From positions 25,278-89,277 of the forward strand of contig JAGXNO010000001.1 in NCBI GenBank assembly GCA_019894975.1: a stretch of 64,000 nt of DNA. The letters are read 5' to 3'. Positions 1,893 through 59,225 of this stretch are shown in pieces (the stretch's first letter is position 1; the number at the start of each line of letters is the position of its first letter). The notes below the pieces were generated by a model that searched no databases, was not told where the DNA came from, and saw only the letters and a list, made by a program, of their open reading frames with translations. The translations under genes were made by a program, and so were the position numbers. The DNA comes from Promethearchaeota archaeon. GTDB lineage: Archaea; Asgardarchaeota; Lokiarchaeia; Sigyniarchaeales; SOKP01.

Positions 1893-3945
1893 CCTTTCCC
1901 GTTTTTGAATTCTTTAAGTAATTTGCCCCAACAACAAGCTTTCCTACCCCTATAATATTATTTCTTAATTTATCAATAACAGCAACATAATTTCCTGGAA
2001 TTAGATCTAAACTATAATCTATAACTCCTATTCGAAACAGATTATTTCCCCGAATAGTTTCTCCATCAAAAATAATCATATTTGAATCTAATGAAAATGG
2101 TTTTTGAGTTATACTCTTCATTCCATTAATTGTTATGCTTACTTGACCCGTTGAAGCGTTAAATGTACCAATATTTTGTTTTGTGTTCATATCTTTGAAA
2201 TTTATTCTATTATTAGCTTTATTTTTTTTCAATACTAAATCATTTTTTATTATTTTGTTTCCAGAGCCAATACCAAATTGATAATCCAATATTTTTATGA
2301 ATTTTCGAATCCAAGTTTTTGATAAATAATTACCCTTTGCCATCTCTTTTTTAGGGTTATAATCGTTTATATGTTCTTGTATAATCTCTTCAAGAACTTG
2401 AAGAGATTCATTTGAAGTAGGATTTTCTTTCACAACAGAAAAAAATAATTCATGTTCCAGATTTTGGTTAATTTTTTTCACTATTTCAAGAGATTCTCCT
2501 TCAAGATGGCAAATGATAGGGATCGATTTATCATATTTATTTAAAAGAGATAAAAGCATTTCTGAGGTAATTTTTTTTTCCTCCTCATCCCAATTCCCAG
2601 TGACAGAGATGTCATATGAATTAACTGGATAAATATCTTCCAATTGTCTAGGAATTGCTCCAAGAGGAGAAGTAATAATAATTTCTTGAAAATTGGGAAA
2701 TTCTGGAAATTTCCTTATTGATTTGGAAAATTTTTTGTGTGATTTGGAACTAGAATAAGGTTTTTTCGCAGAACAGGGGAGTAGGATGATTAAATTAGTC
2801 CATGCTTCTGGTTCAAAATTTGTTATAGTTCTCTTCCTAAATTCTTTAAAATCAGGTCTATGATATGAGGACTGGCCTAAACATATAATTTTTTTATCCT
2901 TTTGAGTGATCGGAGTTTCATATCTTACTAGTTTAAAGTATTCTTTATCTAATATTTTCAATGTTGAGATTATATTAATATCATCTAAAGATGATTTTTC
3001 AACAAATGCACGATAATCCTCGTATCGAAGATATTGCTTAATTTTCCTCATATAATTATTAGCTGAAATTAAATTATGCAAGCATAGTAGGTCTGTCTTC
3101 TCTTGAGAATACTTTACTTCAAACAAATTTTTTAAGTCTCCTTTACAAGCAACACAAGAACAAGGTAAATATTTAACTTTATAAATTGGGAGTAAATATT
3201 CTATTGTATCATAGAAATCTTCCGCTGACAAAAAGAGTAGAAATGTCGTATCAATTAAGTCCACTCCTAAGTAAACTAGAATCGGATAGAATTTAGGTAA
3301 AATCTTACCTGAAGCCATTATAATAAGGTTATTATCTAACCTATTTTTTATCGTAATAATTGTGCTAATATTATTCCTAAAATTGCCAAAATTATCGAAA
3401 ATTCCAAGGAGATTTAAAATTTTGATGTTTTCATTTGCTTTTATCACTGGTAAATATAATTCTAATAATTCAGAATAATCGAAAAGTCTTATTGACAATC
3501 CAAAGTTGATTTTAGGATGGTGTTCTAATATTCTCTCAACATTTTTGAGGTATATTTCTATTTCTCTTTCTGCAAAATCTCTGCCAATAGTAGTTGTGGG
3601 GATGTTGAAGGGAATGATTGATAAAACATTGTCGTCTGAAAAAATTTCTAAATTGTTCTCTAATATACTTTCAAATTTATCTAATGTTCCCGGATGTGTA
3701 AAAATAAATCCAGTGTCCTTAAATTTTTCTCGTAGAAATCCGATTTTCAAGAAAATCTCTTTAGAAATTATAAAAAGATTATGATCTTCAAATTCCTGTA
3801 AAAAAGTAAAGTTCATCAGCACACTCTTTATCGGAATAGCCACGTTTGGGGTTCTAATAAAGAGTTTTTTATCTTTAGAGAAATTCACCCGTCCTATTCT
3901 TGAAAAACCAATTCTGTTTTCTAATAATTCAAAAAAATTGCTCAT
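1867..3945 (-). CDS. arcS: Archaeosine synthase ArcS (TGT paralogue with C-terminal PUA region)
   Basis: 692 aa. It has a TGT-like N-terminus, a Zn motif CSCVAC, and the ArcS signature PC-x3-KPY-x2-S-x2-H, seen here as PCSAKKPYSSSKSH. Confidence 0.8.
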   Translation of the reverse strand: MSNFFELLENRIGFSRIGRVNFSKDKKLFIRTPNVAIPIKSVLMNFTFLQEFEDHNLFIISKEIFLKIGFLREKFKDTGFIFTHPGTLDKFESILENNLEIFSDDNVLSIIPFNIPTTTIGRDFAEREIEIYLKNVERILEHHPKINFGLSIRLFDYSELLELYLPVIKANENIKILNLLGIFDNFGNFRNNISTIITIKNRLDNNLIIMASGKILPKFYPILVYLGVDLIDTTFLLFLSAEDFYDTIEYLLPIYKVKYLPCSCVACKGDLKNLFEVKYSQEKTDLLCLHNLISANNYMRKIKQYLRYEDYRAFVEKSSLDDINIISTLKILDKEYFKLVRYETPITQKDKKIICLGQSSYHRPDFKEFRKRTITNFEPEAWTNLIILLPCSAKKPYSSSKSHKKFSKSIRKFPEFPNFQEIIITSPLGAIPRQLEDIYPVNSYDISVTGNWDEEEKKITSEMLLSLLNKYDKSIPIICHLEGESLEIVKKINQNLEHELFFSVVKENPTSNESLQVLEEIIQEHINDYNPKKEMAKGNYLSKTWIRKFIKILDYQFGIGSGNKIIKNDLVLKKNKANNRINFKDMNTKQNIGTFNASTGQVSITINGMKSITQKPFSLDSNMIIFDGETIRGNNLFRIGVIDYSLDLIPGNYVAVIDKLRNNIIGVGKLVVGANYLKNSKTGKVVEIYEKS

Positions 3946-4052
3946 TCTAATCGATAAATTAAATATTATTCACTTTAAGTTATCTTATTACCCAAAACTA
4001 TTAAGAATTTAGTAAAAATTTAGGAAATAAAATTAAAAGAATTACGGTGATA

Positions 4053-35200: not shown

Positions 35201-35337
35201 GCCCACATAGTGTAGCCCGGTCCAGCATTTTTTTGCTGTATTCCAGCGAAAAGCTAAATCGGGACTGTCAAGCTCTCTCCACGAAGGCGGAGCACAGAGC
35301 TCCTGCGACGCGGGTTCAAATCCCGCTGTGGGCGCCA
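35201..35337 (+). tRNA. tRNA-Asp (GUC) with two introns (about 30 nt near position 25/26-26/27; 29 nt canonical at 37/38) and a genomically encoded CCA
   Basis: The acceptor stem is GCCCACA/TGTGGGC. The D arm is GTGT-AGCCCGGTCCA-GCAT. The anticodon stem is CGGGA (35260-64) / TCCTG (35301-05). The loop is CTGTCA|C. The T arm is GCGGG-TTCAAAT-CCCGC. The 3' end is G-CCA (35334-37). The canonical intron 35271-35299 sits in a textbook BHB. Confidence 0.85.
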
Positions 35338-45511: not shown

Positions 45512-48500
45512 ATGGAAATAGAGATTAAAGGAGCAAGAGAAAACAATTTAAAGAATATCGATGTTAAATTCAAAGACGGTTTAACTGTTGTTACTGGGAT
45601 TTCTGGATCTGGGAAATCATCTCTTGTTTTCGATACATTATATCATGAGTCAAATCGTCGATTAATAGAGTTATTCGGTTATAGTCGCAAATGGTCAAGT
45701 CAAAGATCTTCTTATAAATTAGCTCCAGCTAAAGTTGGGTCAATAACCGGATTGGGTCCAGCAGTTGCAGTTGGACAAAACCTACTAAATAGAAATCCAA
45801 ACTCTACTTTAGCTACAGCATCAGGATTACATCCTTTATTTAGGTTACTCTATGCAAGGTTTGGGGTAAGAACGTGTCATAAATGCGGTACCAATATAAC
45901 TGTCCTAACTCAGGATGAAATAATTAATTATCTTTTTAGTTTAGCTAGAGAAAAATCTGTTGTTATTTATTCTCAGCTCGTAAACAATTCTATTGGAAGC
46001 CACAAAACATTACTAAATTTTCTTTCAGAGCAATTTTCTACAGAAAATATATATATTGATGACAAAAAATGGGAAGGATTAGCTCTCAATCCAAGTAAAC
46101 CACATAAAATCTTAATAAAACTCGCTCAAATCGATAAATCAACTGCAGATGAAAATGTACAAGAAATTGTCCAAAGAAGTCAGATATTAGGTTCAAATAT
46201 ACTTCAAATAGAGGTTGGTAAAAAAATCGAGAAAATTACAAGAGTAAAATCTTGTGTAGAATGTGGTACATGGTTAAAAGATATTGAACCCAAGCACTTT
46301 TATATGTCTTGTCCGTTCTGTAAAAGAAAGGGATGCAAAGAATGTAATTTTACGGGGTTACATCCTTTAGCTTCGTCTGTATATTTTTCAGGTCAGATTA
46401 TCACCCAATTGTTAAAATATTCAGTAAAAGATGCACTAAAGCTTTTTAAAGACACTAGACTATCGATTCCTACAAATCGATTGATAACTGAAATAACAAA
46501 AAGGTTAGTCGCATTAAAAGATGTAGGCCTTGATTACTTAACACTGAACCGTTCATCTCCTACATTATCGCGAGGTGAATCACAACGAGTAAGAATCGCA
46601 CTCACTTTGATTAACCAATTAGAAGATGTTTTGCACGTACTTGATGAACCAACAATCGGTCAACATGTTACAGATATTACTAAGTTTTTACCAATTTTCC
46701 ACAAATTACCTGGACCCGTTATCTTTGTAGAGCATGATAGAATAGCAGCATCTGCGGCGAATAATGCAATTGATATAGGACCTGGCGCAGGAACGAGTGG
46801 GGGATCAATAATATTTAATGGTTCTCCTTCGGAATTATGGGAGTCAAATACACCTACAGGAGAATTCTTTAGTTTAAGAAAAAAAGTCATTGTACCAAAA
46901 TTAAGGCCAAAACCAAATCTCTTTTTAAAAATTGAAGCTGCTGATAAGCATAATCTTAAGGAAATAACTGTGGAAATCCCTTTAAATCGATTAACAGTTA
47001 TAACGGGTGTTTCAGGTTCAGGTAAGAGTACCTTAATCGAAGATGTCCTTCATGCTTCACTACATAAGAAAAAACCAATCGGTTGCGGAAAGATTAATGG
47101 ACCATCTTTAAAGTCAGTAATGGTTGATCAGAGCCCTATTGGAAAAAATCCCCGCTCAAATCCAGCTACCTATACAAAAATATCAGAAATTATAAGAAAA
47201 CTATTTTCAAAAGAAACAGGTCTTAGTGCTTCTCACTATTCATTCAATAGACCAGAAGGTGCTTGTCCTACTTGTAAGGGAATGGGTGCTCTGGAGATAA
47301 GGATGCGGTATATACCTTCATCTTGGATCTCTTGTCCAGACTGTAAACAAGCACGATTTAAGGAAAAAGTTCTAAAGAATAAAGTAGTTTTCGGTGATAA
47401 ATCATATTCTATTTCTGAATTCTATAATTTATCTGTATCTGAGATTGCTGATTTAATAGAAAATGAAAATCGTTTATCTTCTAACGATTTACAAAAGTTG
47501 AAAGAAATGTTAAAGACTCTTAAAGAGATCGGTTTAGGGTATTTATCCCTTGGACAACCAAGTCCATCTTTATCGGGAGGAGAGGCTCAACGTATTAAGT
47601 TATCAAAATACTTAGGAAAAACATCTCTAATAAATCAGATAATTATATTAGATGAACCAAGCACAGGTCTTCATCCTCAAGATTTGAAGGGATTACTAGT
47701 AATCTTAGATCGATTAGTTAGAGCAAGAGCGACAGTTATCATTGTAGAACATAATTTGGATGTCATTAAAGCAGCAGACTGGGTTATTGATCTTGGTCCT
47801 GGAGCTGGTGATGAGGGGGGTAATATAATTTACTCTGGTCCTATTGAAGGATTATTAAAATGTAAAGATTCAAAAACGGCCAAAGCTTTGAAACTCGATG
47901 AATTAATAACACCAAGTTCAAAAAGAGGGAAAAAAAAACTACTCGATAAAATCACAATCAAAAATGCCCACATTCACAATTTGAAGGGAATCGATGTTGA
48001 ATTCCCAAAAAACGCAATTAATGTAGTTACTGGTGTTTCTGGAAGTGGTAAGTCTAGTTTAGTGAGTGATGTAATCGAAGCTGAAGCCAAACGTCGCTTT
48101 TTTGAAACCTTATCCATGTATGAGCGCCAAGGGATTCGTGGGGGTCCTGAAGTACTGGTAGATGAAATATCTGGTTTAGGAGTTACTTCTCATGTTATAT
48201 CAACTAGAGCACTGCATTCACGTTTTTTCATGATAAGGAATACAATAGGAAAGGCTACAGAAATTTCCCTTCATATTGCAAATTTATTAGCGTATGTTGG
48301 AGAAATTAATTGTCCAAAATGTGGAGTTTTAATGATACATAAGACAAAGATGGTATGTGATAAATGTAATACCATCATTAAATTACCCAATCCTATTCAT
48401 TTTGATCCCGCATCATATCAAGCAGCATGTCGAAATTGCCATGGTATAGGAACTGTTAACGTCCCACAACCAGATAAGCTAATTATTAATCCGGAAAAAC

Positions 48501-50401
48501 CATTGTGTAAGGGTGCGATGCATTCCCCCGGATTTTTTCCTCAGGGATATTTATGTAAACCATACAATGGAGGATATTATGTTGTCCAAGCCCTTGCAAA
48601 ACGTTATGATTTTGATCCAGCTAGTACCCCTTGGAATGAAATGACTAAGGAGGCTCAAGACGCATTCCTATTCGGAAACGATGAACCATTGGAAATACAT
48701 TATGAGAATCGTAAAGGTGATAAACGTACCTATCAAAGTAAATTTAATGGATTTTATCATGGATGGGTAGATGAATGGGATATTGGTGGTACATACACAG
48801 ATATAAAACCATGTGAAAGTTGTAAAGGTGCTAAACTTCGACCAGAATATTTAGCTGTTACATTAAATGGTTATAATATGCATCAGTTAAGTGAACTTCC
48901 CCTAGTGGTTTTGCTAAAAGTTTTAAAAAGTATCTCCATAAAGCATGAAATTCCTGATATTGTTCATAGGAGTTATAAAACGGTCCTAGAGCGTTTGAAT
49001 TTCTTAATCAAGACAGGTCTAGGATATGTTCATTTGAATAGAATAGCAGCATCTCTTTCAGCTGGCGAAGCTCAGCGGATTAGATTAGCAGGAGTTTTAG
49101 GTAGTGGTCTTACATCTCTTACAATTGTTTTGGATGAACCCTCGAGAGGTTTACACCCTTCGGAACTTGAAGCTTTATTGGAAGCACTTGTGGAATTACG
49201 TGATATGGGGAACACCATCTTAATGGTAGAGCATGATATGCTTTTGATTAATTCAGCAGATTTTATTGTTGATATGGGACCAAAAGCTGGAATTGAGGGT
49301 GGTGAAATAGTTGCAACTGGTCCCCCGATTGAAATAAAAAAAAAGAACACTATCACCGCAAATTGGTTGGATGGGAGAAAAAAGTTCAAGTACAATGAAC
49401 AAAAAAGAACCCCAAAAAAATGGTTAAAGATATATGGTGTGAAAGAAAATAATCTTAAAGGTGAAACAATAGAGATACCTCATGGCCTTCTGGTAGGCTT
49501 ATGTGGAGTATCTGGTTCAGGCAAATCTACGCTATTGATAGATACTATTGGAAGGGCTTTAGCCCCAAAAAAACATACCACGTCAATGGCACACGAACCC
49601 ATAGAGCCAGGAAAACATGATAAAATCGAAGGTGAATTATCTCAAACAATCATCATTGACCAAACCAGAGCAAGCATAACAAGCCCAATGAACTATCTTG
49701 GTTTAAAAAAAAACTTTTTCAAAATCTTTGCTGAAAGTGAGGATGCAATATCATTAGGTTTAAGCGAAAAAGACCTTAAAAAGAGATGTACTGCATGCAA
49801 AGGATATGGGTTAAACAAGACAGATATGGGATTCTTACCAGATATTTACGACTTATGTGAAGTATGTAATGGAACTGGATATTCTATGGATGCTTGGAAA
49901 GTGAAAGTAAATGGTATATCACTTCCCGAATTAAATGAATTGACTATTGATGAGATTCATAGATTGTTTAAAGAAGAAGATTCTATTGAAAAAAAATTAA
50001 AGTTCGTTAAAGATGTTGGACTAGGATATTTAGTAATGAATCAACCTGCTTATACTCTTTCGGGTGGAGAAGTCCAGAGACTTAAAATTGCGAAAGAATT
50101 AAGTAAGAAGAGTACAAACAAAACTATGTACATTTTGGACGAACCTACAGTAGGACAGCATATGGAAGATGTTTCTCGTCTTATTAATGTTTTACAAAGG
50201 TTAGTTAAAAAAGGACATACAGTAGTCGTTATTGAACACCATCCACACCTTCTTGCTGCATGTGATTGGTTAATAGAACTCGGTCCTGGTGCAGGTGATG
50301 AGGGTGGAAGGTTAATCGCAGCTGGGACGCCTGTAATGATAGCTGAGGGGATAACACCTACAGCACCCTACATAAAAGAGGTTTTGGAGGAGATTGCATG
50401 A
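45512..50401 (+). CDS. Tandem (double-length) UvrA-like ABC ATPase with four nucleotide-binding domains
   Basis: 1629 aa. There are four Walker A motifs (GISGSGKSS, GVSGSGKST, GVSGSGKSS, GVSGSGKST). There are four signature motifs (LSRGESQR, LSGGEAQR, LSAGEAQR, LSGGEVQR). There are four Walker B motifs (LDEPTIGQH, LDEPSTGLH, LDEPSRGLH, LDEPTVGQH). Several CxxC Zn modules are present. The second UvrA unit starts near 47950. Confidence 0.8.
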   Translation: MEIEIKGARENNLKNIDVKFKDGLTVVTGISGSGKSSLVFDTLYHESNRRLIELFGYSRKWSSQRSSYKLAPAKVGSITGLGPAVAVGQNLLNRNPNSTLATASGLHPLFRLLYARFGVRTCHKCGTNITVLTQDEIINYLFSLAREKSVVIYSQLVNNSIGSHKTLLNFLSEQFSTENIYIDDKKWEGLALNPSKPHKILIKLAQIDKSTADENVQEIVQRSQILGSNILQIEVGKKIEKITRVKSCVECGTWLKDIEPKHFYMSCPFCKRKGCKECNFTGLHPLASSVYFSGQIITQLLKYSVKDALKLFKDTRLSIPTNRLITEITKRLVALKDVGLDYLTLNRSSPTLSRGESQRVRIALTLINQLEDVLHVLDEPTIGQHVTDITKFLPIFHKLPGPVIFVEHDRIAASAANNAIDIGPGAGTSGGSIIFNGSPSELWESNTPTGEFFSLRKKVIVPKLRPKPNLFLKIEAADKHNLKEITVEIPLNRLTVITGVSGSGKSTLIEDVLHASLHKKKPIGCGKINGPSLKSVMVDQSPIGKNPRSNPATYTKISEIIRKLFSKETGLSASHYSFNRPEGACPTCKGMGALEIRMRYIPSSWISCPDCKQARFKEKVLKNKVVFGDKSYSISEFYNLSVSEIADLIENENRLSSNDLQKLKEMLKTLKEIGLGYLSLGQPSPSLSGGEAQRIKLSKYLGKTSLINQIIILDEPSTGLHPQDLKGLLVILDRLVRARATVIIVEHNLDVIKAADWVIDLGPGAGDEGGNIIYSGPIEGLLKCKDSKTAKALKLDELITPSSKRGKKKLLDKITIKNAHIHNLKGIDVEFPKNAINVVTGVSGSGKSSLVSDVIEAEAKRRFFETLSMYERQGIRGGPEVLVDEISGLGVTSHVISTRALHSRFFMIRNTIGKATEISLHIANLLAYVGEINCPKCGVLMIHKTKMVCDKCNTIIKLPNPIHFDPASYQAACRNCHGIGTVNVPQPDKLIINPEKPLCKGAMHSPGFFPQGYLCKPYNGGYYVVQALAKRYDFDPASTPWNEMTKEAQDAFLFGNDEPLEIHYENRKGDKRTYQSKFNGFYHGWVDEWDIGGTYTDIKPCESCKGAKLRPEYLAVTLNGYNMHQLSELPLVVLLKVLKSISIKHEIPDIVHRSYKTVLERLNFLIKTGLGYVHLNRIAASLSAGEAQRIRLAGVLGSGLTSLTIVLDEPSRGLHPSELEALLEALVELRDMGNTILMVEHDMLLINSADFIVDMGPKAGIEGGEIVATGPPIEIKKKNTITANWLDGRKKFKYNEQKRTPKKWLKIYGVKENNLKGETIEIPHGLLVGLCGVSGSGKSTLLIDTIGRALAPKKHTTSMAHEPIEPGKHDKIEGELSQTIIIDQTRASITSPMNYLGLKKNFFKIFAESEDAISLGLSEKDLKKRCTACKGYGLNKTDMGFLPDIYDLCEVCNGTGYSMDAWKVKVNGISLPELNELTIDEIHRLFKEEDSIEKKLKFVKDVGLGYLVMNQPAYTLSGGEVQRLKIAKELSKKSTNKTMYILDEPTVGQHMEDVSRLINVLQRLVKKGHTVVVIEHHPHLLAACDWLIELGPGAGDEGGRLIAAGTPVMIAEGITPTAPYIKEVLEEIA

Positions 50402-55997: not shown

Positions 55998-57017
55998 TTA
56001 TTGTGATTTCCAAAAACCTCGTTTACTAAGCAATCGTCCTAAATATACAACTGAAAGCATGACTGGAACTTCCCAAAATAATCCCATGGTTGTACCTAAC
56101 GCTGCAATAGTATTATTCATAGCAATAGCAGTAGCTATAGCAATCTCAAAATGGCTAGAGGAACCGATTATTACTGTAATGATTGCCTCCCTGTATTTCA
56201 TCTTAAATATTTTTGTCATTAGTATATTATAGCCCACAACTATGACAAATCCTACTAGAAGTGGAATTGTAACTATTAATAAGTAATCCGGATGATCTAA
56301 GAGGGCCGTACCATTCATAGAAAAAAGGATTATTAATGTTGCTAGAAGCGCGATAATGGAAATCTTCCCAAGAAATGGGCGATAAGTGTCGGTGAACCAT
56401 TCTTCTCCTTTAGAAGAAATCAGAACTTTCTTACTAGTTAACCCCACTATTAATGGAAGACCAATGAAGAAAAATAGCGAAATCAATAACAACACCCAAT
56501 CAAGGGAAATATTTTGTATTCCTGTCAAAAATGTAACAATAGGAATATATAAAAAGATGATGGTAATCGTATTTAAGCTGGTATTAACTACATTTTGCTC
56601 TTGGTTTCCTTTCGCCATCCAACCCCACACTAAAACCATTGCTGTGCAAGGAGAACTAGAAAGTAATATAATTGCAAGGATTAAGTCATCATTCCCTTGT
56701 AAAAATATTCGTGCCATAAGCAATCCGATGAAGGGGGCCACAATCCAATTTGAAATAAGGGTTAGGATTATTGGTTTAGGATTTTTACCCAATTTTTTCA
56801 ATTCAGATGCCTTAAGGTTTAACATTGCAGGATACATCATTAGAAACAAACAAATTCCAATTGGTACTGAAATTCCCCCAATCTTTAGAGCGTTAAGAGC
56901 GTCACTAATACCAGGTATGATTTGGGAAATGAGAACACCAATAAGTATACATAATAAGACCCAAAGCGGTAAAAACTTTTCAAAAAAGCTGATTGTTCTT
57001 CCTTCTTCTTCACTCAT
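55998..57017 (-). CDS. acr3: Arsenite efflux permease, ACR3 family
   Basis: 339 aa with 10 TM helices, the start ..FEKFLPLWVL.. and the conserved SSSPCTAMV motif. Confidence 0.85.
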   Translation of the reverse strand: MSEEEGRTISFFEKFLPLWVLLCILIGVLISQIIPGISDALNALKIGGISVPIGICLFLMMYPAMLNLKASELKKLGKNPKPIILTLISNWIVAPFIGLLMARIFLQGNDDLILAIILLSSSPCTAMVLVWGWMAKGNQEQNVVNTSLNTITIIFLYIPIVTFLTGIQNISLDWVLLLISLFFFIGLPLIVGLTSKKVLISSKGEEWFTDTYRPFLGKISIIALLATLIILFSMNGTALLDHPDYLLIVTIPLLVGFVIVVGYNILMTKIFKMKYREAIITVIIGSSSHFEIAIATAIAMNNTIAALGTTMGLFWEVPVMLSVVYLGRLLSKRGFWKSQ

Positions 57018-57075
57018 ATTATTTAAATCCTTCTCTTATACCAATATATGAAATTTAATTGATTCTTAAATAAGA

Positions 57076-57099
57076 AAATTTTTATCCAAATAAAAATTT
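57076..57099. promoter_or_regulatory. Perfect 10-bp inverted repeat in the divergent acr3/arsR intergenic region (candidate operator)
   Basis: AAATTTTTAT-CCAA-ATAAAAATTT at 57076-57099. It is made only of A/T apart from the spacer, so a chance match is possible. Confidence 0.3.
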
Positions 57100-57177
57100 A
57101 TTGATTTGAATAAGTTTTTATAAATCTGCTTATCTTTAATAATTATTAGACATTGAGAATCTGAAGTGGTGTTATAA

Positions 57178-57564
57178 ATGGATCCTGATCATAAAAAAGA
57201 AATTTTGGATAAATTGATTAAATGTGAAGATATAAATAATCCAGATCTTCATTTCAAACAATTGCGTGAATTAGGTAATCACTTAATTCAAAATCCTAGT
57301 TTTGATGACTTAATTAAATTTGTAAACGCTGTTGCAAATAGAAAACGCCTAATAATTATTAATACATTAAAAGAGAAGGATCGATGTGTCTGTGAATTAG
57401 AAGCTGTTTTAGACGAGTCCCAACCGGCCATATCACATCATTTAAAAATACTTGAAAATGCTGGATTGATTAGAGGATGGAAAAAAGGTAAGTTTACACA
57501 TTATGACATTGTTAAAGAACAAATTATCTCATATATGGATATTTTAAATCAAAAATTAATATAA
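57178..57564 (+). CDS. arsR: ArsR-family metalloregulator
   Basis: 128 aa with the CVCEL metal site followed by ..SQPAISHHLKILENAGLI.. (wHTH). Confidence 0.85.
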   Translation: MDPDHKKEILDKLIKCEDINNPDLHFKQLRELGNHLIQNPSFDDLIKFVNAVANRKRLIIINTLKEKDRCVCELEAVLDESQPAISHHLKILENAGLIRGWKKGKFTHYDIVKEQIISYMDILNQKLI

Positions 57565-57634
57565 ATAAGCCTTCCACTAAAATTAATAGTCTATAACTAT
57601 TAAGTTTAAAAGCTAATCTAAGTATTTTAATCGT

Positions 57635-57651
57635 AATCTAAAATTTAGATT
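57635..57651. promoter_or_regulatory. Palindrome AATCTAAA-A-TTTAGATT upstream of the 57696 ORF (candidate operator)
   Basis: The arms are 8 bp with a 1-nt spacer. The half-site TAATCTA also occurs at 57614-57620. Confidence 0.35.
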
Positions 57652-57695
57652 TACTTGACATAATTTAATTTTAGTGAAGAAAATTTTTTGAAAAC

Positions 57696-57953
57696 GTGAA
57701 ATTTATGGCAAAACCAGTACCAGATACCGAAGAGTCAATGAATGAATGCAGAAAATTCTGTGGTCCTTGTCCTTCTTTCAAACCAAACCAACTCAATGAA
57801 TTTGAACCTCATGCTCTATTCTGTTCAAGAGGAATATCACAAAAACCAAAAGACCAAATAGAAAACAAAGGATGCAGTTGTTTTGGATGTGGATTGTTCT
57901 CAAAGTATGAATTGGAAAAGGGATTTTTCTGTGCACCTCATTTTCAACAATAA
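57696..57953 (+). CDS. Small Cys-rich protein (DUF2769-like)
   Basis: 85 aa containing ..CRKFCGPCPSF...CSRG...GCSCFGCGLF..FC... Confidence 0.4.
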   Translation: MKFMAKPVPDTEESMNECRKFCGPCPSFKPNQLNEFEPHALFCSRGISQKPKDQIENKGCSCFGCGLFSKYELEKGFFCAPHFQQ

Positions 57954-58055
57954 AAAATTACTACTTCATATAATCTCTTTTTTTTTAATTTTCCTATGAA
58001 ATTTTTATTAAATATTACAGTGAATATTTTAAATGTACAAGTATATCACAATATA

Positions 58056-58124
58056 ATGAGAATTAATTTTTCGAATAAGGTAAGAGTTCTTACCTCTTGT
58101 TGCTGTAGTACTTGTTGTTGTTAA
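58056..58124 (+). promoter_or_regulatory. Poly-Cys upstream ORF (22 codons), candidate leader peptide for the cysteine synthase gene
   Basis: ATG AGA ATT AAT TTT TCG AAT AAG GTA AGA GTT CTT ACC TCT TGT TGC TGT AGT ACT TGT TGT TGT TAA translates to MRINFSNKVRVLTSCCCSTCCC. A TATA-like TTTTAAAT lies about 25 nt upstream of the ATG. Confidence 0.6.
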
Positions 58125-58223
58125 ACAACAGTTTCATTAATTCTCAAATAACCATCAGAAATCTTTCTTTTATAAAACTCTCGTTGGTTAAAATTGTAGA
58201 ATTTTAATTGTGAAATCTAAAAT

Positions 58224-59225
58224 TTGGGTGATAGAATGAAGTCATTATCGTATAGTAGGGAAAAAGGAAAAATTGAATTTAATAATAAATTAAGAGTGTA
58301 TGAAAGTATTGAAGATTTAATTTCAAATAGAGAAAATCCTTCACCATTGGTTAAACTAAATGAAAGAATTAATCCAAATAAGAATTTTCCGATTTATATG
58401 AAATTAGAGCGCTACAATCCTTTTGGATCAATAAAAGATAGAGTTGCTTATTCAATGCTTAAAGATGTAGTATTTAAGGAGGGGCAACGGATCATAGAAC
58501 CGTCATCTGGGAATACTGGAATCGCTTTAGCATCATTAGCAAATGCGAGGGGTATTCCTATTGAAATAGCTGTACCGAGTAGAATTCCCGAAGAAAAAAA
58601 GATACTTTTAAAATTACTCGGTGTGAAAGAATTATGGGAAGCTGATGATAATCTATGTCCTAAGTTTCCTAATGAAGGGGCGAGAGGTGTTGTAAATGGA
58701 ATATTGGAGAGTAAGGGTGGAGAACGGTATTTTAATCCAGATCAATATGGAAATGACTTGAATGTAGAGGCTCATTATAGAACCACAGGTCCAGAAATTT
58801 GGGATCAAACTAATGGGGAAATTGATTATTTTTTTGCAGCTATGGGTACATGTGGCACTATTACAGGAGTTGGAAAATTCTTAAAAGAAAATAAACCCTC
58901 GGTTAAAATAATAGGAGTAGAACCTTCAGAAACATTACATAATATACCAGGCTTGAAAAGAATAACTGACCTTGATGAAGATTTGATTCCAAAAATCTTA
59001 GATAAAACTGTAATTGATGAAATTATTGAAGTAAACGATAAAGAAGCTTATAGAACCGGTATTGACTTAGCAAGAAAAAATGGCATATTAGTTGGGCCTT
59101 CTACCGGTGCAATTTTAGCCGCTGCTTTAAAGTATGCAAAATCACATGAAGGGATAGCAGTTATTATTGCCCCCGATGATGCTACTAAATATATTAGTTC
59201 ATATGCGCCCTATATTAAAGAATAG
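58224..59225 (+). CDS. Cysteine synthase family PLP enzyme (CysK/CysM-like)
   Basis: 333 aa with the PLP-lysine motif NPFGSIKDR plus SSGNTGIALA and GTCGTITG. The ATG at 58236 is the more likely start. Confidence 0.85.
   Translation: MGDRMKSLSYSREKGKIEFNNKLRVYESIEDLISNRENPSPLVKLNERINPNKNFPIYMKLERYNPFGSIKDRVAYSMLKDVVFKEGQRIIEPSSGNTGIALASLANARGIPIEIAVPSRIPEEKKILLKLLGVKELWEADDNLCPKFPNEGARGVVNGILESKGGERYFNPDQYGNDLNVEAHYRTTGPEIWDQTNGEIDYFFAAMGTCGTITGVGKFLKENKPSVKIIGVEPSETLHNIPGLKRITDLDEDLIPKILDKTVIDEIIEVNDKEAYRTGIDLARKNGILVGPSTGAILAAALKYAKSHEGIAVIIAPDDATKYISSYAPYIKE

Follow-up and report, generated by a model that had tools for sequence, protein, structure and literature searches.

The locus described here lies within a 64,000-nucleotide (nt) stretch of the genome of a Promethearchaeota archaeon (assembly GCA_019894975.1, contig JAGXNO010000001.1, positions 25,278 to 89,277 of the forward strand), called the window below and numbered from its first letter, and consists of a gene for a cysteine-synthase-family enzyme (here cysK) together with the leader in front of it. 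This leader contains a short upstream open reading frame (uORF) that ends in a run of cysteine codons, and comparison with its relatives in other Asgard archaea reveals a conserved element that contains the uORF and has two predicted, mutually exclusive RNA folds that share one segment. The features on which the argument rests are the following:

58003–58034 (+): putative archaeal promoter, two conserved AT-rich blocks in alignment A2, the proximal one containing the TATA-like TTTTAAAT (58027–58034)
58056–58124 (+): poly-cysteine uORF, 22 sense codons plus TAA, encoding MRINFSNKVRVLTSCCCSTCCC (ATG at 58056, TAA at 58122–58124)
58057–58067 (+): segment S1, the 5′ strand of predicted helix P1, uORF nt 2–12, TGAGAATTAAT
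58078–58095 (+): predicted hairpin H1, GGTAAGA/TCTTACC, inside the uORF (58078–58084 with 58089–58095)
58098–58121 (+): cysteine-codon tract, TGT TGC TGT AGT ACT TGT TGT TGT, the proposed ribosome stall site
58112–58131 (+): predicted hairpin H2, formed across the stop codon by the last cysteine codons TTGTTGTT and AACAACAG (58112–58119 with 58124–58131)
58133–58146 (+): segment S3, the putative switch segment, with TTCATTAATTCTC at 58133–58145; partner of S1 in fold A or of S5 in fold B
58149–58190 (+): predicted hairpin H3, TAACCA...TGGTTA, with a pyrimidine-rich loop of about 30 nt containing TCTTTCTTTT (58162–58171)
58194–58216 (+): segment S5, TTGTAGAATTTTAATTGTGAAAT (AGAAUU...AUGAA), the alternative partner of S3, with a short T run inside
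58226–58238 (+): Shine–Dalgarno (SD) sequence GGGTGAT (58226–58232) and ATG (58236–58238) of cysteine synthase
58236–59225 (+): cysteine-synthase-family enzyme dependent on pyridoxal phosphate, 329 amino acids, the gene presumed to be regulated

An initial annotation of the window, made without database searches, had singled out an ORF of 22 codons at 58056–58124 with cysteine at six of its last eight codons, and both its sequence and its coordinates are borne out, cysteine occupying codons 15–17 and 20–22. The accompanying remark that cysteine codons are otherwise sparse holds as well: cysteine makes up 1.1% of the residues in the long ORFs of the window, and the tract is the only 8-codon window with six cysteines across the six frames of the 64 kb, where 0.0004 would be expected and none of 100 Markov-1 simulations reached this density. 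When 13 less common amino acids were tested, the uORF was the sole ATG-started ORF of 8–40 codons with a comparable run upstream of a long ORF. The poly-cysteine observation is thus genuine and far above chance expectation. A longer reading of the same frame, as a 42-codon ORF from the ATG at 57996, was rejected, the upstream start being GTG, ACT or missing in relatives and the conservation there being promoter-like. None of the uORF peptides is present in a collection of 15 billion predicted proteins, and the uORF is therefore unannotated everywhere.

The comparative data show that the uORF is a property of the locus rather than of a single genome. In a set with one representative genome per species, which holds 38 loci with relatives of the enzyme (7 Asgard and 31 bacterial), an ORF of the form MRI(N/K)...poly-Cys-stop lies upstream in seven of seven Asgard loci, and a poly-cysteine uORF in none of the 31 bacterial ones. 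In JGI metagenomes the uORF is present in all orthologues that are 76% or more identical and have sufficient upstream DNA, and it is also found on contigs of metagenome-assembled genomes (MAGs) labelled Loki-, Hod- (Hodarchaeales) and Thorarchaeota. The search for comparable poly-cysteine uORFs before orthologues that the initial annotation had proposed was therefore productive, yielding 26 distinct Asgard core leaders, 24 of which were tabulated and aligned (alignment A4; alignment A2 has 25 rows), as well as leaders in more distant lineages. Four further distinct leaders lie beyond the core set, and the 28 tabulated uORFs cover all leader families. Dense runs of cysteine codons are almost confined to these uORFs, which account for 33 of the 35 matches to at least 5 cysteines per 8 codons in the roughly 700 kb of fetched loci.

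Within the family, it is the reading frame and the cysteine content that are maintained. Insertions and deletions in the uORF are of 3, 6 or 9 nt and preserve the frame; the (TGT)n tract is always read as cysteine from the conserved ATG, never as valine or leucine; and its codons switch between TGT and TGC (144 versus 27 in total). All 28 tabulated uORFs end in TAA, are 18–27 codons long and carry 4–8 cysteines in their C-terminal third, with 14–16 codons ahead of the first cysteine in the Asgard core and 9–13 in other lineages. Compared between the window and its orthologues, the leader of about 180 nt is 67–90% identical, versus 31–52% at four-fold sites of cysK, the latter being near saturation. 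As judged from these alignments, the whole leader is under purifying selection. The distant orthologues L064–L066, L082, L084 and L025 (62–73% identity), which stand directly behind a gene for a phosphoadenosine- or adenosine-phosphosulfate (PAPS/APS) reductase in the order cysH–cysK, have no poly-cysteine uORF in the DNA examined, and the leader is therefore not universal for the enzyme family.

Outside the Asgard core, poly-cysteine uORFs with unrelated N-termini occur in three more distant low-GC lineages. In an Asgard ‘Promethearchaeia’ MAG (L013/L079/L080) the uORF encodes MRFRQQNQPNSYFCNCCRDCCC; in L076/L119–121 a uORF encoding MKYGEDSRKDSCFLCSCSCMCCC heads a complete sulfate-assimilation, siroheme and cysteine operon (cysK–TusA, DUF169, sulfite reductase, TusA, six siroheme/tetrapyrrole genes, two PAPS-reductase-family genes and CysN); and in groundwater contigs L107/L124 one encoding MATNKLSNSCTCCCTYCC stands ahead of cysK–DsrE–TusA. 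In L122, which is related to L076/L119–121 and has a rearranged gene order, MGKIQLNKVNNCFCCSCCCCC precedes the PAPS reductase that is the new first gene. The uORF thus stands ahead of the leading cysteine or sulfur gene whatever the gene order, and this fits a cis-regulatory leader. As in known leader-peptide attenuators, a codon-biased ORF precedes a biosynthetic gene on the same strand, is conserved in relatives and tracks the operon, and, like the mycobacterial small ORFs (sORFs) discussed below, it is located upstream of cysteine and sulfur metabolic loci. The four leader families have in common a TATA-like, AT-rich octamer whose end lies about 22 nt ahead of the ATG, a uORF without an SD and, past the stop codon, a complement of the cysteine codons followed by (U)UUCAUU; beyond the Asgard core, the poly-cysteine ORFs themselves have only their cysteine residues in common. 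The lineage of L076/L119 is probably archaeal: the nearest named relatives of the L076 ALAD are from Altiarchaeales and Hadarchaeota (57–59% identity), followed by Clostridium.

Some observations on these other loci stand apart from the leader itself. Between the poly-cysteine uORF and cysK–TusA, L076 (1595–1663) and also L119–L121 carry another small ORF, MLKLNDYQMINPDDKFKDFEEK, which has the strong SD GAGGTGAT; because it stops 5 nt ahead of the cysK ATG, it may be a translationally coupled relay. The cysteine synthase of this marine low-GC lineage is fused to a TusA sulfur-carrier domain (L076 1678–2880), in L122 (2025–3984) a pair of tandem PALP genes precedes a TusA encoded on its own, and L107 has DsrE and TusA downstream, so that enzymes of this family appear to be linked to proteins of persulfide relay. 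When viral contigs were scanned with a degenerate pattern of the leader, all seven matches lay in coding contexts of other frames and were rejected as chance.

At the 5′ end of the element, the initial annotation had pointed to the TATA-like TTTTAAAT about 25 nt before the ATG as a sign of a leaderless uORF. The box is present, its sequence is conserved, and its distance from the uORF ATG differs by no more than 1 nt among the aligned leaders. If transcription starts at 58056, it spans −29 to −22, and because this is the position expected for a leaderless mRNA, and with no SD preceding the uORF, we infer that the uORF mRNA is probably leaderless, starting at or beside the A of its ATG. An inverted repeat, TTAAATATT-N6-AATATTTTAA (58008–58032), overlaps the TATA-like box and is kept in most, not all, Asgard leaders; it could be a transcription-factor operator, and an ArsR-family gene lies 500 nt upstream of it. 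Further upstream, a run of nine T residues at 57978–57986, 25 nt past the stop codon of a DUF2769 gene, is likely an archaeal terminator that would part DUF2769 from the leader promoter, and it serves as an example of a strong T tract in this genome.

Our fold predictions place the uORF inside a conserved RNA structure. Applied to the 24 core leaders without constraints, RNAalifold returns fold A; masking of the first 20 nt turns the consensus into fold B. Fold A comprises P1, H1, H2 and H3, with 95% of its alignment cells paired versus 29–54% for slid partners. In P1, a long-range helix of 9–11 base pairs (bp), uORF nt 2–12 (UGAGAAUUAAU) pair with AUUAAUUCUCA (58136–58146). In the core leaders, nt 3–11 of S1 are invariant in 24 of 24, the synonymous nt 6 and 9 included, and nt 12, where pairing begins to fail, varies; because the synonymous sites are frozen only within the helix, we read the conserved MRIN of the peptide as an RNA constraint. 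The opposite strand lies in S3, whose TTCATTAATTCTC is the most conserved block of the leader and has its only exact copy in the window here. Its 3′ part, ATTAATTCTC, is identical in 25 of 25 rows of A2, and its 5′ TTC deviates only in L006, where the C is deleted, and in L047/L050/L053, which have ATC. The S1:S3 duplex has a predicted energy of −10.7 kcal/mol versus −2.5 for shuffled partners, and P1, H1 and H2 form a three-way junction that encloses the entire uORF (−24.2 kcal/mol, z = −4.1, 0 of 200 shuffles as good). In prefix folding, P1 forms once the prefix reaches 92 nt, well before S5 is made.

The hairpins of fold A had in part been recognized in the initial annotation. The palindrome GGTAAGA-GT-TCTTACC that it had placed within the uORF is the real hairpin H1, with 90.5% of cells paired and two pairs changed on both sides. 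The other hairpin it proposed, pairing 58113–58117 with 58126–58130, is H2, which is likewise real and conserved, the register alone being a few nt off. H2 has 96% of its cells paired and shows a compensatory series from U–A through U·G to C–G; in L047/L050 the sequence reads TGTCGT TAA ACGACA, so that the last codon has changed from Cys to Arg with the H2 pair kept, and L107 pairs CTGCTG with CAGCAG across the stop codon. H3 has 97% of its cells paired, with C-to-U changes retained as G·U. What the earlier reader missed is the strongest RNA feature of the leader, P1, together with its conserved alternative downstream partner. A miniature inverted-repeat transposable element (MITE) with terminal inverted repeats was considered and rejected, there being one copy in the window and an orthologous position in all relatives.

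That alternative partner defines fold B, in which S3 and UUCAU pair with S5 and so lengthen H3 into a long hairpin. S3:S5 has 88% of cells paired versus 35–51% for slid partners, with two pairs changed on both sides, including a change of UUCAU/AUGAA to AUCAU/(A,G)UGAU in L047/L050/L053, and the hairpin has a z-score of −2.2. Fold B is supported by these pair counts, the two double-changed pairs and the z-score; because its free S3:S5 duplex, unlike S1:S3, does not outdo shuffled partners, it is a weaker prediction than fold A. For the window sequence the two are nearly isoenergetic (−37.5 kcal/mol for fold A and −36.4 to −38.6 kcal/mol for fold B), and in the orthologues the 5′-masked fold costs 0.3–10 kcal/mol. 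Folds A and B are thus predicted to be mutually exclusive, conserved and joined through S3, and the geometry suggests that the choice between them would depend on the position of the ribosome. A pairing of UUCAU with the AUGAA of cysK instead was rejected: it does not outperform shuffled sequences, and S5 is the partner to which the compensatory change in L047/L050/L053 points. We likewise rejected a second small ORF starting from an ATG or GTG inside S5, neither its frame nor its presence being conserved.

We suggest that the 5′ leader of cysteine synthase acts as a cysteine sensor that depends on the ribosome and can be classed, broadly speaking, as a leader-peptide attenuator, a reading that we hold to be probable rather than secure, modelled as it is from alignments and predicted folds. 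Before transcription reaches S3, a ribosome would load at the 5′ end. If Cys-tRNA is ample, it would complete the 22 codons and leave, upon which fold A would close, bury the 5′ AUG and lock the uORF off; without ribosomes, fold A would be expected once 92 nt are made. With charged tRNA-Cys scarce, the ribosome would stall in the tract at 58098–58121 and prevent H2, and the spacer of 14–16 codons would leave room for a second, initiating ribosome on nt 1–18, so that S1 would be occupied and S3 would be free to pair with S5. The position of the ribosome would then pick the fold and so set the expression of cysteine synthase, which is expected to be high when cysteine is low; by the logic of a biosynthetic gene, we expect fold B to be the ‘on’ state.

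Several results weigh against this proposal. Across the 24 core leaders no pair of P1 is changed on both sides, both strands being invariant, and in the other three leader families P1 fails to reach significance; a helix between the 5′ end and the post-stop segment was accordingly rejected as a universal feature, being significant in the Asgard core only. The S3:S5 pairing, when treated as a bimolecular duplex, does not surpass shuffled partners. It is also conceivable that P1 forms around a stalled ribosome, in which case the logic of the switch would change. Lastly, the core leaders show neither an intrinsic terminator nor a structure that sequesters the ribosome-binding site (RBS): a canonical terminator, that is, a hairpin followed by a U run, was not found in the leader, and no conserved helix lies on the SD or AUG of cysK in the 24 core leaders, whether by RNAalifold, by folding of the 3′ part alone or under single-sequence ribosome masks.

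These last negatives bear on the step that would be regulated. In both folds, the SD and AUG of cysK lie in weakly structured, AU-rich sequence in the core leaders. Because the cysK RBS is open in either fold, we favour control of transcript extension or survival over control of initiation, and for the core leaders our preferred guess is that transcripts are terminated early or cleaved within 58162–58205, a region rich in U and pyrimidines that the model leaves single-stranded in fold A. In fold A, both the pyrimidine-rich loop and S5, which includes a short U run, would be single-stranded; in fold B, part of S5 would be paired. U-tract termination in archaea needs no hairpin. Archaeal RNA polymerase terminates at U tracts and/or with the factor aCPSF1/FttA (PMC8716108, PMC11616081), which binds single-stranded U tracts through its KH domains, Lokiarchaeota orthologues included (PMC8716108), and which is thought to police lapses in the coupling of transcription to translation (PMC11616081). 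An output through U-tract/aCPSF1(FttA) termination is, for the leader described here, purely hypothetical.

One particular terminator had been named at the outset, the T-rich tract TCTTTCTTTT at 58162–58171. The tract is present, but it lies in the loop of H3 within a variable pyrimidine-rich stretch, and its T run is not conserved: runs of at least 5 T occur in only about half of the core leaders, no run of at least 4 is found in L001, L002/L043 or L047/L050/L053, and the L013-type leader has no such run anywhere. We therefore rejected it as an oligo-T terminator.

One alternative is that the leader works exactly as its mycobacterial counterparts do. There, leaderless polycysteine sORFs (Ms5788A and five other loci, the ‘Cys ribulon’) hold stalled ribosomes that block a structure sequestering the downstream RBS, a mechanism demonstrated in M. 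smegmatis (Canestrari et al., 10.1101/834739). Applied to the leader studied here, a stalled ribosome would free the cysK RBS from an anti-SD in a purely translational step, and the switch between folds A and B would be incidental. Two of the outlying families resemble this arrangement. In L013, ACCUCA, 8–13 nt past the stop codon, is a perfect complement of the cysK SD UGAGGU (3882–3887 and 3964–3969), a match found only in the L013 variant, for which a translational step appears more likely. In L107, the segment past the stop codon pairs with the region around the start codon, and when the last cysteine codons are masked, the probability that the initiation region is unpaired goes up from 0.38 to 0.56. 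The core leaders behave differently. Besides having no conserved helix over the SD or AUG, they show no consistent change in SD accessibility under simulated ribosome masks; the duplex of S3 with the initiation region is no better than shuffled; and the cysteine tract pairs with AACAACAG just past the stop codon rather than with the downstream SD, as it does in mycobacteria. For the Asgard core we thus consider a purely translational mechanism unlikely.

Alternatively, the leader could be a structured cis-regulatory RNA, whether riboswitch-like, a protein-bound 5′ untranslated region (UTR) or a 5′-end stabilizer, whose state is set by a ligand or protein and in which the ORF is tolerated or only translatable. 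The distribution of conservation speaks for this possibility, since TTCATTAATTCTC, with its invariant 3′ part, and the leader as a whole are more conserved than most of the peptide, and the three-way junction is unusually stable; an inverted repeat also lies over the promoter, with an ArsR-family gene adjacent. Such an RNA would leave unexplained why four families with little shared nucleotide sequence beyond the short post-stop motif all keep an in-frame, cysteine-dense ORF with ATG and TAA, and why (TGT)n is always read as cysteine from the conserved ATG despite the indels. No known RNA family matches either: in Rfam 15 the window has no gathering-score match except tRNAs, 57950–58300 gives only noise (E 1.8 and 2.6), and no family is matched by the leader even at E up to 10. 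We regard this explanation as quite unlikely.

A third explanation takes the peptide itself as the product, a functional cysteine-rich micropeptide that would bind thiols or metal(loid)s in connection with the neighbouring ArsR, ACR3 and DUF2769 genes, with the conservation of the RNA being secondary. The peptide is indeed extremely rich in cysteine, and the order ACR3 (on the − strand), ArsR, DUF2769, leader, cysK is kept in many Asgard loci. Beyond the Asgard core, however, only the cysteines are common, and the loci examined show sulfur-assimilation genes and no ars genes. Moreover, the number and spacing of the cysteines vary (4–8 residues, in arrangements such as CCCSTCCC, CCIFGCC, CCCCCR and CCFFSCCCRK), the last cysteine gives way to arginine exactly where an RNA pair is restored, the conserved MRIN is explained by RNA pairing, and the 111 non-coding nt downstream are as conserved as the ORF. 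A micropeptide is on these grounds very unlikely to be the primary function. Finally, although TGTTGTTGT is a simple repeat of the kind that can arise by replication slippage, the notion of a functionless slippage-generated (TGT)n run is effectively refuted by the comparative data, the run standing in the same place and frame in all Asgard orthologues across 76–100% protein identity, interrupted by TGC and other codons, within a leader under strong purifying selection and against a chance expectation of 0.0004 per window.

The gene behind the leader and its surroundings can be described more briefly. The enzyme belongs to the PALP/cysteine-synthase family (Pfam, 1.1e-61); its nearest NCBIfam models are cysKM, cysM and cysK, with scores all under the equivalog cut-offs, and its relatives in the PDB are CysK/CysM enzymes. 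A protein identical to it is on record for a MAG named ‘Candidatus Lokiarchaeota archaeon’. Of the two starts entertained initially, 58224 and 58236, with a gap of about 100–110 nt to the uORF, orthologue alignment supports the ATG at 58236, whereas the TTG at 58224 is not conserved; the distance from the uORF stop codon to the cysK ATG is 111 nt in the window and 108–115 nt over the core leaders. About 11 of the 48 long ORFs of the window have an SD-like motif before their first ATG, that of cysK being among the strongest, and this scarcity fits a genome with many leaderless or SD-less mRNAs in which SDs serve genes after long leaders or inside operons.

In the window (in part at 55998–57953) and in L001, L002, L005, L043, L098, L133 and L134, a conserved order runs from a gene for ACR3 arsenite efflux (−) through an ArsR-family gene (+) and a DUF2769 cysteine-rich small protein (+) to the leader, cysK, a 420-amino-acid protein without a Pfam domain, and SMC; cysteine synthase may accordingly be a member of a thiol or arsenic stress neighbourhood. 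Elsewhere in the window, whose G+C content is about 30%, a 134-nt Rfam tRNA match at 35201–35334 (+), missed by ARAGORN, is probably an intron-containing archaeal tRNA, and the sole G+C-richer stretch (0.37 versus about 0.30) is a 1629-amino-acid ORF for a UvrA/ABC-type ATPase at 45512–50401 (+).

The leaders trpL, hisL, leuL, thrL and pheL are the classical enterobacterial leader-peptide transcription attenuators, and with them the Asgard leader shares a short codon-enriched uORF, mutually exclusive pairings (here predicted) that have a middle segment in common, and a stop codon so placed that a terminating ribosome reaches the next segment. In contrast to these attenuators, it has no GC-rich terminator hairpin followed by a U run, it is apparently leaderless, and the start-codon region of its uORF is itself a competing strand. 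Like the mycobacterial sORFs, the Asgard uORF is a short ORF, probably at the 5′ end of its mRNA, with a 3′ cysteine run, stands upstream of cysteine and sulfur genes, and is proposed to remodel its leader through stalling; the architecture is leaderless in mycobacteria and, as judged from the promoter spacing, apparently so here. It differs from them in being archaeal, in having no sequence homology to them and in leaving the cysK SD unsequestered, and the Asgard core adds a helix that would capture the 5′ start-codon region, together with a conserved alternative partner.

Cysteine leader peptides without terminators have also been predicted in Actinobacteria, for the cys operon of Mycobacterium and Propionibacterium and for cbs of Bifidobacterium, and factor-dependent termination, with Rho as the factor, was proposed for them (Seliverstov et al. 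2005, PMC1262725). Unlike the Asgard leader, these are bacterial and lack a counterpart of the helix between the 5′ end and the post-stop segment. With tnaC, the Asgard leader shares the concept that a ribosome retained where a leader ORF ends gates the access of a termination factor just downstream. In E. coli, tnaC is a case of Rho-dependent attenuation that responds to free tryptophan, sensed by way of the nascent peptide, rather than to charged tRNA. The corresponding Asgard factor would be aCPSF1/FttA acting on U tracts, which is, again, purely hypothetical.

Leader-peptide attenuation is a textbook bacterial mechanism that relies on coupled transcription and translation, and such coupling exists in Archaea. 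The literature searched reports archaeal uORFs from ribosome profiling (Ribo-seq) and yielded no archaeal amino-acid-sensing leader peptide or attenuator, in line with the initial annotation, which had called leader-peptide attenuation essentially undescribed in this domain. Whether we have here the first ribosome-mediated amino-acid-sensing attenuator in Archaea, present in Loki-, Hod- and Thor-type MAGs, with analogous leaders in at least three low-GC lineages (one of them probably archaeal), a leaderless, self-locking 5′ end and an output possibly through U-tract/aCPSF1(FttA) termination, seems to us evenly balanced. The class of mechanism is known from bacteria; the novelty lies in its occurrence in Archaea, in the proposed leaderless and self-locking architecture and, probably, in the output step.

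Our analysis finds a 22-codon ORF without annotation under strong selection. A conserved and easily mutable Asgard case would give a natural test bed for leaderless initiation and for termination linked to aCPSF1/FttA. The arrangement of a leaderless start, 10–16 codons, a run of one amino acid, TAA and a complementary post-stop segment also provides a search template with which more such sensors may be sought.

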